Below, piece by piece: positions 51,670 to 53,888 of a DNA stretch of 64,000 nucleotides; position 1 is the first letter of the stretch; every line of letters starts with the position of its first letter. The translations under genes and the position numbers were made by a program. The notes beneath the pieces were generated by a model. That model made no database searches. It had not been told where the DNA came from and worked only from the letters and a program-made list of their open reading frames with translations. The stretch covers positions 512,001-576,000 of the forward strand of contig CAWJAX010000005.1 of the NCBI GenBank assembly GCA_963841015.1, read 5' to 3'. The stretch is from an uncultured Methanoregulaceae archaeon (lineage in GTDB: Archaea > Halobacteriota > Methanomicrobia > Methanomicrobiales > Methanospirillaceae).

Positions 51670-52620
51670 AAGCCCGGCTTCTGGCGGTTGGTCAGGCACA
51701 CCTGACCGGTGAACCGGCAGAAAACTATATCGCCCGTTCAGCTGCAGGTACCCGGTGCCGGTGGCAGCGGTGCAGTTTTTTTTGCCATGGGAAGTCACCG
51801 GGTCAAGCTTGCGCTCAGCCCGGTAAGCAGTATCGAGATTGCACACCGTGGCAACGGAACTGCCGATCTGTTCTTTGAAGGACAGAAAATCTCCGGACAC
51901 CTGCTGGAACCCGGGTTCCATTGCCCTGATCAGGCTTTTATCACCGTGACCGGCAGCTGCATTTTTTCCTGCAGCTATTGTTCCGTCCCCCGGATCGGGG
52001 GAAAACGCAAGACCATCAAAGAGATCACAGCGATGGTGGAATCGGTACGTGACCATATCCATGCAATCTCCATAACAAGCGGGGTCCTCACGAGCATTGA
52101 AGAAGAAGAGGCCTATGTTCTTGAAGTGGTAAAACACCTCGCTTCGTTTAACCTGCCTGTTGGTGTCTCCATCTACCCGACCACAACGACACCCGACCGG
52201 TTAAAGGAGCTGGGCGTGGCTGAGGTGAAATTCAATCTCGAAGCGGCAACCCCGGAACTGTTTTCTCAGATGTGCCCGGGTCTGGATTACGGGGTACTCT
52301 GGCAGGTACTGGATCGCTCGGTGAAGCTGTTCGGGAAAAACCGTGTCTTTTCCAATGTCATCATAGGCCTGGGGGAGACTGATGCGGAGCTGGAAACCTG
52401 TATCCAGAAGCTGACAGCGCTCGGGGTGATTCCGGTTCTGCGCCCACTCAATCCGGTAGCCGGGCTTGCAGGCTCACCACGGCCATCTGCACAACGGCTG
52501 ATGAAAATCTTTGCCATACATGCACGGGCTCTTGACCAGGCTGGTCTTGATCCAAAACTTGCAGTTACGATGTGCACGAATTGTGCAGGTTGTGATCTCG
52601 TGCCGGGGAGGGACCAATGA
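51651..52620 (+). CDS. Radical SAM protein, BioB/LipA-like (frameshift near 51750)
   Basis: SAAG-PGAGG after joining the frames, HCP, CIFSCSYC, KFNLE, IIGLGETD, C-terminal MCTNCAGCD. Confidence 0.8.
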
Positions 52621-53888
52621 AAGGGGTTGACGTAATCACCCGGGCAATCCTTGCCTGCACCGACCGGCAGTATACCGTGCCGGGTTTTCCCATCACTGAG
52701 CTTGGTGAGCGGACAGGAGCGGAACTGGTGATCAACGAGAAGACTGCGCTGGAATATGCACTCGGGGATTCCCTCTCTGGCAGGAGGGCCGCGGTTATCA
52801 TCAAAAATGTCGGGGTGAACGCGTGTGCCGATCCCCTGCTCCAGGCAACAGCGCAGGGGCTCATAGGGGGGGTGATCCTTGTAGCCGGGGATGACCCGGA
52901 AGCAAAAGGTTCACAGACCTCCCAGGACTCACGCTACTTCGGGGAGCTTGCGGAACTCCCGGTGATAGAACCGGATGAAACCACCTGTTATGCCGGTGTG
53001 GAGGCGGCGCTTGAAGCCTCCGAGGAGTTCTCCCGGGTAGCCATGCTCCGCCTGACACCACAGATCCTGGAACAGGAGGTAACAGGTAATCCTGTTCCCC
53101 GGAATGACCGGCGAGGGAGGCTCTCCGACCGGACCTGGACTATGAACGGCAGGGTCACTGCAGCAGAGGAGCTGTACCGCACGATGTTTGCCTGGTCAGA
53201 CCGGTCAGCCCTGAACCAGTGGAAGGGAGAACCCGCCGGTGTTGGTGCAGCAGAGGGGAATACCCGGATAGTGACCGTGAATCCTCTGCCGTTGCAGGCT
53301 GCCGGGATGCACAATGTGCATGAACAGGGCCGGACCTTTGTCCGTGACCACCGTGGTATCCAGCCACCGCTTCCCCAGAAACGCCCCCAGGCGATGGAGG
53401 ACCGCGGATACTACCGCACATTCTGCACCTCATGCCCGTTTAAACCCTTCATGAATATCGTAAAGGAACGGAACATGAAGATGATCTGCGATGCCGGGTG
53501 TTCCGTGCTGGGAATGAATCCGCCGTATGATCTGGGTGTGGCAAGTTATGGTATGGGTGCGAGCATCGCGGTAGCCGCACGGAGTACGCAGGTTGCCCTT
53601 ATCGGTGATTATGCCCTCCTGCACTCCGGTCTGAACGCACTCATCGATGTCTATGAGAAGCGGCTCCCGCTGCTCTGCATAGTAATGAATAACAAATGCA
53701 CCGCAATGACCGGCAAACAGCCGGCCTATAATCCTGTGCCCTATATCCGCTGGGCAGACCCGGTTATCTGCAGTGCCGATGACGAACCGATGCTGAAACA
53801 GGAGCTTGTGGTCACGGACAGGCCGCGAACGCTGGTGATTGAAGGGACCTGTCCGGGAGGAAGCAGCCATGAAACCGTGGAATATTGA
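52617..53888 (+). CDS. TPP-dependent IorA-like protein (short, no ferredoxin domain, no IorB partner)
   Basis: PGFPITE, NEKTALEYALG, SQDSR, FCTSCP, DAGC and GDY-x25-NN TPP motif. Confidence 0.85.
   Translation: MKGVDVITRAILACTDRQYTVPGFPITELGERTGAELVINEKTALEYALGDSLSGRRAAVIIKNVGVNACADPLLQATAQGLIGGVILVAGDDPEAKGSQTSQDSRYFGELAELPVIEPDETTCYAGVEAALEASEEFSRVAMLRLTPQILEQEVTGNPVPRNDRRGRLSDRTWTMNGRVTAAEELYRTMFAWSDRSALNQWKGEPAGVGAAEGNTRIVTVNPLPLQAAGMHNVHEQGRTFVRDHRGIQPPLPQKRPQAMEDRGYYRTFCTSCPFKPFMNIVKERNMKMICDAGCSVLGMNPPYDLGVASYGMGASIAVAARSTQVALIGDYALLHSGLNALIDVYEKRLPLLCIVMNNKCTAMTGKQPAYNPVPYIRWADPVICSADDEPMLKQELVVTDRPRTLVIEGTCPGGSSHETVEY

Follow-up and report, generated by a model that had tools for sequence, protein, structure and literature searches.

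A short IorA-like thiamine diphosphate enzyme encoded with aks genes: a candidate for the decarboxylation of 2-oxosuberate in coenzyme B synthesis

Which enzyme takes 2-oxosuberate onward to coenzyme B (CoB)? The question is raised by a gene in a stretch of 64,000 nucleotides (nt) from an uncultured Methanoregulaceae archaeon (assembly GCA_963841015.1, contig CAWJAX010000005.1, positions 512,001 to 576,000; here called the window, with coordinates counted from its first letter). The gene, located at 52617-53888 on the plus strand directly upstream of aksA, encodes P0001, a short protein resembling the thiamine diphosphate (TPP) enzyme IorA. Every reaction of methyl-coenzyme M reductase depends on CoB, and with it nearly all biological methane formation and anaerobic methane oxidation. 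Beyond 2-oxosuberate its synthesis proceeds by decarboxylation to a C7 aldehyde, thiolation, ligation of threonine and phosphorylation. The chemistry leading from 2-oxosuberate to 7-mercaptoheptanoate has been known since about 1989, and we know of no genes assigned to it. The AksA/D/E/F route to 2-oxosuberate is described as established in a passage of PMC3087415, and a passage of a 2025 paper (PMC12068725) still calls the CoB pathway unknown. In the literature searched there was no claim for a 2-oxosuberate decarboxylase, nor any for methanogenesis marker protein 11 (mmp11), whose gene lies close to that of P0001. The gene context described below makes it somewhat probable that P0001 is a TPP/[4Fe-4S] enzyme which decarboxylates 2-oxosuberate for CoB synthesis in methanogens other than those of class I.

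An initial annotation, made from the sequence letters, had described the gene as encoding an orphan TPP enzyme with PYR and PP domains, a GD-x26-NN motif and probable cluster cysteines (CTSC, DAGC and a terminal CP). All of these elements were located (all on the plus strand):

52617-53888, plus strand: predicted IorA-like TPP/[4Fe-4S] protein P0001, short form; open reading frame (ORF) of 423 amino acids (aa) with a TPP_enzyme_C match, an IOR_alpha match below cut-off and a place in a separate clade
52716-53066, plus strand: core of the PYR domain (IOR_alpha positions 48-165; alignment columns), with the invariant Glu41 of the NEK motif (52737-52739) and GDD (aa 91-93)
53067-53417, plus strand: reduced middle region, about 117 aa versus about 190 profile positions of domain II; no profile match, and gaps relative to orthologs of about 500 aa and to canonical IorA
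53424-53501, plus strand: Cys270 and Cys273 (CTSC) and Cys295 (DAGC, aa 292-295), three of the four putative ligands of a TPP-proximal [4Fe-4S] cluster, from the alignment
53604-53693, plus strand: TPP/Mg2+ motif GD-x26-NN, aa 330-359 (G330, D331 and H336 invariant, N359 nearly so)
53850-53855, plus strand: Cys412-Pro413, putative fourth cluster ligand, from the alignment

The only Pfam family matched by P0001 was TPP_enzyme_C (aa 292-369, 40 bits). The top NCBIfam model was IOR_alpha (TIGR03336). Its score of 156.2 bits falls short of the cut-off of 650.9, and the match consists of two parts, at profile positions 48-165 (PYR) and 357-469 (PP). Positions 166-356, corresponding to domain II, and 470-595, the C-terminus including the ferredoxin domain, had no match in P0001. 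The much reduced middle domain of the initial annotation was borne out by the lengths given above. Its statement that a ferredoxin domain with two [4Fe-4S] clusters is missing also held: no Fer4 family was found in the Pfam scan, and none of the 11 cysteines of P0001 form a C-x2-C-x2-C-x3-C motif. Pfam and NCBIfam scans detected no CoA-binding domain III/gamma (CoA, coenzyme A) in P0001, and the two models for ComDE, the sulfopyruvate decarboxylase of coenzyme M (CoM) synthesis (TIGR03845 and TIGR03846), gave no match at E<=0.01.

The marks of the 2-oxoacid:ferredoxin oxidoreductase (OFOR) superfamily are present in P0001, namely the PYR glutamate, the PP GD...N(N) motif and the C-x2-C ... C ... 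C quartet. In the alignment the NEK Glu41, GDD, D104/S105, D292/G294, G330/D331, H336 and N359 were invariant or nearly so. Cys270, Cys273, Cys295 and Cys412 were each found in at least 90% of 23 aligned sequences, and their columns coincide with cysteines of the canonical IorA encoded by the same genome. As in structures of pyruvate:ferredoxin oxidoreductase and other OFORs, these four residues would be the cluster ligands. A search of PDB sequences with P0001 alone returned nothing at E<=0.01; with the family profile, matches were limited to marginal ones with OFOR-alpha and generic TPP sequences. The solved sequence nearest to the N-terminal domain was 1yd7 (E 1.9e-8 with the family profile, a marginal similarity), and the beta subunit of oxalate oxidoreductase (5c4i) was weakly matched by the same profile (E 0.011).

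The two-subunit archaeal OFORs (PDB 5b48; alpha subunit 1yd7) are similar to P0001 in being minimal enzymes that lack a ferredoxin domain and contain one [4Fe-4S] cluster, but in these enzymes a CoA-binding gamma domain is fused to the alpha subunit, whereas P0001 has none in cis. Oxalate oxidoreductase, which also belongs to the OFOR superfamily, does not use CoA, which means that the scaffold can act without a gamma domain or CoA site; unlike P0001, it is built from three subunits and carries the complete set of clusters.

The genome from which the window was taken (G000; 2.28 Mb in 5 contigs, 94% complete) also encodes a canonical pair. Its IorA has 589 aa, scores 826 bits and contains a Fer4 domain, and the IorB gene that comes next encodes 194 aa with a POR domain; the two lie at G000:C5:492362-494688, about 20 kb before the window. 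By the source names attached to near-identical proteins and to related contigs, the window belongs to Methanoregula in the order Methanomicrobiales. Five POR gamma-type domains were found in the genome. All of them lie outside the window, each adjoins its own alpha/beta genes, and no unpaired POR gene was detected in this 94%-complete assembly. The initial annotation had noted the lack of iorB nearby and had suggested a search for a cognate iorB; the search led only to the IorB that is paired with the full-length IorA. Since all five POR domains are already paired, no partner subunit is left for P0001, and the description of its gene as an orphan was correct. Among the genes recognised in the 13 plus 15 homologue loci described below there was none for a POR protein; the queries for these loci were cluster proteins, and POR was not one of them. 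Neither ComD nor ComE was found above cut-off in the same 94%-complete genome; the organism may rely on external CoM or on another CoM route.

Full-length orthologs of P0001 were present in all of 31 related genomes (47-95% identity, 377-425 aa), and some members of the short form are just 366-383 aa long. Homologues numbered 825 at E<=1e-5 among 8000 proteins scored, which together with the orthologs shows that the gene is real. Genome searches for members of this clade covered the phylum of the window, from which 301 genomes were drawn (families within the phylum are designated f, genomes G and loci L). Outside the order Methanomicrobiales, strong matches were obtained in f7 (43/43 genomes), f10 (11/11), f14 (10/10), f23 (9/9), f19 (2/2), f29 and f32, with open frames of about 480-560 aa. 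Judged by source names f7 is Methanosarcinaceae; other members of the clade are labelled Methanotrichaceae, Methermicoccaceae and Candidatus Methanoperedens. These longer orthologs are 27-33% identical, have a full domain II, end just past the fourth cysteine and carry no ferredoxin domain; those of about 500 aa scored 203-333 bits with IOR_alpha (cut-off 650.9). As they keep domain II yet end without a ferredoxin domain, the Methanomicrobiales protein can be described as a further-reduced ferredoxin-less IorA-like enzyme. On the evidence of the alignment, the short form arose in a particular lineage by reduction of the ferredoxin-less form of about 500 aa. The sole aligned member without the four cysteines was the protein encoded at L068 in G164, a genome of f19 labelled Halorutilales, a haloarchaeal lineage.

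The relationship to canonical IorA was analysed with two trees. A FastTree tree was computed from 173 rows, comprising the 150 best representatives from a search of 1.84 billion proteins, 22 proteins of known gene context and the IorA of the host genome. All mmp11- or aks-linked proteins were contained in a set of 44 rows with support 95, which includes the Methanomicrobiales clade (18 rows, support 100); the ferredoxin-bearing IorAs fell outside this set. In a quick IQ-TREE run with 72 rows the 28 linked rows were located on one side of a branch with a support of 93 in the SH-like approximate likelihood-ratio test (SH-aLRT), and canonical IorA on the other. The clade of P0001 is thus set apart from canonical IorA in both trees, a separation that the initial annotation had proposed to check. 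The ferredoxin motif is missing from 86 of the 150 best representatives. Ferredoxin-less IorA-like proteins of about 510-560 aa (among P0142-P0270) make up large clades that the few available names, Candidatus Poribacteria and Marininema, mark as bacterial. They have in common with P0001 the architecture without a ferredoxin domain, and in both trees they form separate clades.

P0001 is like IorA (TIGR03336) in its PYR domain (NEK glutamate and GDDP...SQ..DSR), in the GD-x26-NN motif of its PP domain and in the four cysteines at the same aligned positions. It differs in lacking the C-terminal 2x[4Fe-4S] ferredoxin domain, in its cut-down domain II, in having no IorB partner, in having aks and mmp11 genes as neighbours, in its score (156 versus 651 bits) and in its separate clade. 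By these comparisons P0001 is not an IorA and represents a distinct archaeal branch of the OFOR/IorA superfamily.

The genes surrounding that of P0001 in the window are the following:

49554-50468, plus strand: ftr, formylmethanofuran:tetrahydromethanopterin formyltransferase, conserved upstream neighbour (Pfam, NCBIfam, comparison of loci)
50755-51669, plus strand: mmp11, with TiaS-like TCKD/FLD domains (TIGR03280, 344 bits, above cut-off; Pfam TiaS_TCKD/FLD)
51709-52620, plus strand: radical SAM (rSAM) protein of the BioB/LipA/LipS2/MSMEG_0568 kind, N-terminus uncertain (Pfam, NCBIfam)
53869-54997, plus strand: aksA-type homocitrate/isopropylmalate synthase, in two frames (ORFs, Pfam, NCBIfam)
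54934-56211, plus strand: aksD/hacA-type homoaconitase large subunit (Pfam, NCBIfam)
56208-56678, plus strand: aksE/hacB-type homoaconitase small subunit (Pfam, NCBIfam)
56675-57475, plus strand: DUF7714, distant homologue of the XcbA family (PF24830, 303 bits; NF052538 (XcbA), 59 bits with a cut-off of 150)
57460-58437, plus strand: aksF-type homoisocitrate dehydrogenase (Pfam, NCBIfam)

The start of the TPP gene overlaps the stop codon of the rSAM gene (ATGA, 4 nt), its last 20 nt overlap the beginning of aksA (ATG at 53869), and it is translationally coupled to both neighbours. The order ftr-(mmp11 paralog)-mmp11-rSAM-TPP-aksA-aksD-aksE-DUF7714-aksF was found in 13/13 loci from six families of Methanomicrobiales. 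A larger set of named loci, the best 80 from a scan with an mmp11 alignment, all of them labelled Methanomicrobiales or generically, was also inspected. In five of these (L086, L131, L132, L152 and L153) the end of a contig cuts off the TPP position. The TPP gene was in place in 73 of the 75 informative loci. In the genome of L147, one of the two loci without it, the TPP gene is on another contig, and the genome of L149, the other, shows a match of canonical length only. A diverged paralog of mmp11 (29-39% identity) is located between ftr and mmp11 in L023, L025, L027-L033 and many of L078-L153; no such paralog was found in the window.

Outside the order, 15 loci with homologues of the TPP gene were compared, and in 14 of them the gene adjoins mmp11 and/or aks genes. 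Its direct neighbour was mmp11 in nine (L059-L062, L064, L065, L067, L070 and L073), and aks genes were beside it in six (L063, L064, L066, L068, L069 and L071), L064 having both. In L067 aksA lies 3.7 kb from the TPP gene. The remaining locus, L072, has neither mmp11 nor aks genes, and its protein groups with the bacterial ferredoxin-less clades. By coordinates, the TPP gene and mmp11 are direct neighbours in 43/43 genomes of f7 and 9/9 of f23, and in 0/11 of f10, where the TPP gene adjoins aksA instead of mmp11. The most constant neighbour of the TPP gene outside Methanomicrobiales is thus mmp11, not aks. Adjacency to aks genes recurs in f10, f14, f19 and f32 in differing arrangements, and one of these four is a non-methanogen. 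The link to aks genes on which the initial annotation was built was found in four families in addition to the six of the order, and is much stronger than could be seen from a single window. Related genomes are not independent of one another; counted fairly, the loci amount to about ten family-level lineages, in which three kinds of arrangement occur.

The non-methanogen is G164, in which L068 contains a co-directional operon aksA-aksD-aksE-aksF-TPP. Neither mmp11 nor DUF7714 was found in this genome. The presence of an aks-TPP operon without them indicates that the enzyme is tied to the product of the aks genes and not to mmp11, independently of methanogenesis genes. A route of the pimelate or biotin type is possible for the L068 operon.

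The distribution of the partner genes was followed in the same 301 genomes. DUF7714 was detected in f1-f7, f10, f14, f23, f27 and f29 and in one further genome, and it was not found in f8, f16 or f19. This is nearly the distribution of the TPP clade. According to a passage of PMC9457059, XcbA is a [2Fe-2S] protein that reduces sulfoethanethioaldehyde to CoM in Xanthobacter. As a distant relative of XcbA, DUF7714 could catalyse the final step in the formation of 7-mercaptoheptanoate. In the named controls DUF7714 and the rSAM family were detected in M. acetivorans and not in M. jannaschii, whereas mmp11 was present in both.

In spite of its name, methanogenesis marker protein 11 also occurs outside the methanogens. 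The gene was present in 17/52 genomes of f8 (Archaeoglobaceae), two of them labelled Ferroglobus placidus and Geoglobus acetivorans. In 15/15 f8 loci (in the range L160-L177) it overlaps or abuts a gene for an rSAM protein of the MSMEG_0568 family (231-254 bits), and in 10 of the 15 a thioredoxin-reductase gene lies beside mmp11 on the opposite strand. In four loci from one genus of the non-methanogenic Archaeoglobaceae (L161, at 10628-12894, L164, L165 and L170; one of them labelled Geoglobus acetivorans) the genes after mmp11-rSAM encode a cysteate-synthase-like protein and a sulfopyruvate decarboxylase of the ComDE type in fused form. These genes suggest that this genus makes a CoM-like sulfonate thiol. 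No member of the TPP clade was found in the mmp11-bearing genomes labelled Archaeoglobaceae, which have IorA of canonical length only. By analogy, another aldehyde-making TPP decarboxylase would hold the place beside mmp11-rSAM in this genus, a parallel drawn from few and related genomes.

ComDE may indeed be regarded as a functional analogue of P0001, as proposed here, because it catalyses a non-oxidative TPP-dependent decarboxylation to an aldehyde that becomes a coenzyme thiol, and because its gene in the one Archaeoglobaceae genus takes the place that the IorA-like gene has in methanogens. The two belong to different TPP families, P0001 was not matched by either ComDE model, and ComDE is not known to have a counterpart of the cluster-type cysteine quartet.

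On these observations, no better candidate than P0001 is available for the first reaction of the missing late CoB pathway in Methanomicrobiales, Methanosarcinaceae and their relatives. The catalytic glutamate and the diphosphate/Mg motif, the lack of a CoA-binding domain, the encoding together with aks genes and the tracking of the XcbA-like protein all point to a decarboxylase. In the proposed mechanism, chain elongation by AksA/D/E/F would end in 2-oxosuberate, which an enzyme of the P0001 type would decarboxylate on TPP. The resulting C7 aldehyde, 7-oxoheptanoate, free or TPP-bound, would then be thiolated to 7-mercaptoheptanoate for CoB, with mmp11, the rSAM protein and the XcbA-like DUF7714 as the likely thiol-forming partners. 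The comparisons show the domain anatomy, the conserved motifs, the clade and the gene linkage; from these we infer the substrate and the product, what the cluster does (redox or structural) and how the neighbouring genes contribute. The initial annotation had named 2-oxosuberate as substrate and 7-oxoheptanoate or an activated pimeloyl species as product; gene context gives this proposal partial support: it is plausible, and the comparison of loci has strengthened it considerably.

Several observations weigh against the assignment to CoB synthesis. The support comes from gene context, and because the genomes are not independent the large counts shrink to the ten or so family-level observations mentioned above. 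The four conserved cysteines imply an Fe-S cluster, for which a simple non-oxidative decarboxylase has no need, so the chemistry may be oxidative or redox-coupled. The cluster may be structural, as the Cys-less protein of the Halorutilales-labelled genome hints, or it may couple decarboxylation to the sulfur chemistry of the neighbours. In two genomes labelled Methanonatronarchaeia (G147 and G167) no IorA-like gene was found at E<=1e-10, though mmp11 is present, and DUF7714 was likewise not found in these two; one of the mmp11-bearing genomes with this label has an adjoining rSAM gene. Both genomes of f27 were without a TPP match at E<=1e-30, and with a wider profile G329 gave a match of canonical length only. 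As DUF7714 and the rSAM family were not detected in M. jannaschii, class I methanogens probably use other enzymes. The family of P0001 is probably absent there, and it was not found in the Methanonatronarchaeia-labelled and f27 genomes searched, so it cannot be the universal enzyme of CoB synthesis. The occurrence of mmp11 in non-methanogenic Archaeoglobaceae means, moreover, that this neighbour alone does not point to CoB. The counts of AksD/LeuC-type genes carried no weight in this: there were two in each of three Methanonatronarchaeia-labelled genomes, two in a non-methanogen, three in a Methanosarcinaceae genome and two in the host genome (one of them split).

The conserved cysteine quartet is the main loose end, and one possibility is that P0001 works oxidatively. 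Like an OFOR, it would decarboxylate 2-oxosuberate and pass two electrons through the [4Fe-4S] cluster to an external acceptor. CoA, sulfide or a protein thiol would then capture the pimeloyl-TPP, and the activated pimeloyl group could serve biotin synthesis or a thiocarboxylate route that leads to the CoB thiol. All four putative proximal-cluster cysteines are conserved as in canonical IorA, the whole superfamily is oxidative, the linkage to aks genes fits this chemistry as well as it fits simple decarboxylation, and the aks-TPP operon of the Halorutilales-labelled non-methanogen would suit a role in biotin or pimelate synthesis. White's laboratory reportedly proposed that both CoB and biotin derive from 2-oxosuberate. 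However, P0001 itself lacks a CoA-binding gamma domain, the genome has none that is unassigned, and the copy from the Halorutilales-labelled genome is precisely the one without the cysteines. A C7 unit at the carboxyl level would need four more electrons to reach the thiol, and the link to an XcbA-like thioaldehyde reductase suits an intermediate at the aldehyde level better. We consider oxidative catalysis of this kind unlikely. Slightly less likely still is that the substrate is some other 2-oxoacid in a pathway linked to mmp11 and rSAM but not to CoB, for example sulfopyruvate in a CoM synthesis without ComDE, or the precursor of another cofactor, with the aks adjacency reflecting a general clustering of cofactor genes. 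The lack of ComD and ComE above cut-off in the host genome would fit, as would the constancy of mmp11 as neighbour outside the order, its position beside CoM-type genes in one Archaeoglobaceae genus, and ftr as conserved upstream neighbour. Yet ComD was above cut-off in 82/121 genomes of Methanomicrobiales and the short enzyme was present in 31/31 relatives. The replacement of ComDE was down-weighted because ComD and the short enzyme occur together in nine of the genomes seen in both searches (G004, G020, G021, G023, G025-G028 and G030). Moreover, aks adjacency recurs in varied arrangements in f10, f14, f19 and f32, and the mmp11-bearing genomes labelled Archaeoglobaceae have no member of the clade.

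That P0001 is an ordinary IorA alpha subunit which borrows an IorB (and ferredoxin) encoded elsewhere and oxidises arylpyruvates would agree with IOR_alpha being the top database match, with the use of that name by public sources and with the presence of a canonical IorB in the genome. This is very improbable, as the match reaches 156 rather than 651 bits, the protein falls in a separate clade with a reduced domain II and no ferredoxin domain, and the sole IorB is paired with the full-length IorA. The linkage to aks and mmp11 is conserved, and no POR gamma gene was seen in the 13 plus 15 loci, for which POR was not a query. The drastic loss of domains in Methanomicrobiales, down to members of 366-383 aa, could also be taken as a sign that P0001 is a non-catalytic remnant of IorA, a scaffold in which TPP and cluster are structural only. 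Against this stands the conservation of the catalytic glutamate, GDD, GD...N and the cysteines, which vary little or not at all in proteins of different orders that share 27-33% identity overall. Residues kept at such divergence form the pattern expected of an active enzyme, and a scaffold role seems hardly credible.

Decarboxylation of 2-oxosuberate for CoB synthesis thus remains the explanation that we prefer. A more far-reaching version of it is possible, although doubtful: mmp11, the MSMEG_0568-type rSAM protein, the TPP/[4Fe-4S] enzyme and DUF7714 would together constitute the late CoB pathway of non-class-I methanogens. The TPP enzyme would make the C7 aldehyde or its TPP-bound form, with the cluster redox-coupled, mmp11 and the rSAM protein would install the sulfur, and DUF7714 would reduce the thioaldehyde.

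Some features of the sequence required separate attention. The TPP ORF is free of insertions and deletions (indels) relative to population contigs. The frame break in aksA is caused by one extra base near 54072, which is missing in four relatives and in contigs of 4/4 public runs; the split in aksA probably stems from an indel in the assembly and does not mark a pseudogene. An extra base at 51749, at the start of the rSAM gene, is omitted by contigs of 4/4 public runs, which means that the listed rSAM N-terminus is not the true one; the rSAM orthologs align from residue 15-23 on. Elsewhere in the genome (G000:C4:75113-76298) a LeuC/HacA-type large-subunit gene is in two pieces, with an in-frame TGA. 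The irregularities in aksA, at the rSAM start and in the LeuC-type gene probably represent assembly indels, not biology. Contigs from two RNA libraries covered 30/30 bins of the cluster in X15 and 28/30 in X16, and as such libraries may contain DNA no inference was drawn; one RNA-library contig of 528 nt crosses the rSAM/TPP junction at about 90% identity, from which no inference about transcription was drawn either. The minus strand at 44195-49319, directly before ftr and the CoB cluster, seems from its translations to encode a heterodisulfide-reductase-like set, in which polyferredoxins accompany an HdrA-like protein of 708 aa and proteins resembling HdrB and HdrC.

With a conserved set of four candidate genes, and the TPP enzyme at its entry, the question of how CoB synthesis is completed becomes testable. 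If the four-gene pathway is true, mmp11-rSAM would be a general aldehyde-to-thiol module, which the Archaeoglobaceae genus would pair with ComDE for a CoM-like thiol, and the pathway would be an independent parallel to the bacterial XcbE/XcbA route to CoM. If P0001 acts as proposed, it would exemplify a new use of the OFOR scaffold, with TPP and one cluster and without a CoA or ferredoxin domain, and would add targets for inhibitors in methane mitigation. The classes of methanogens would then differ in the way they finish CoB synthesis.

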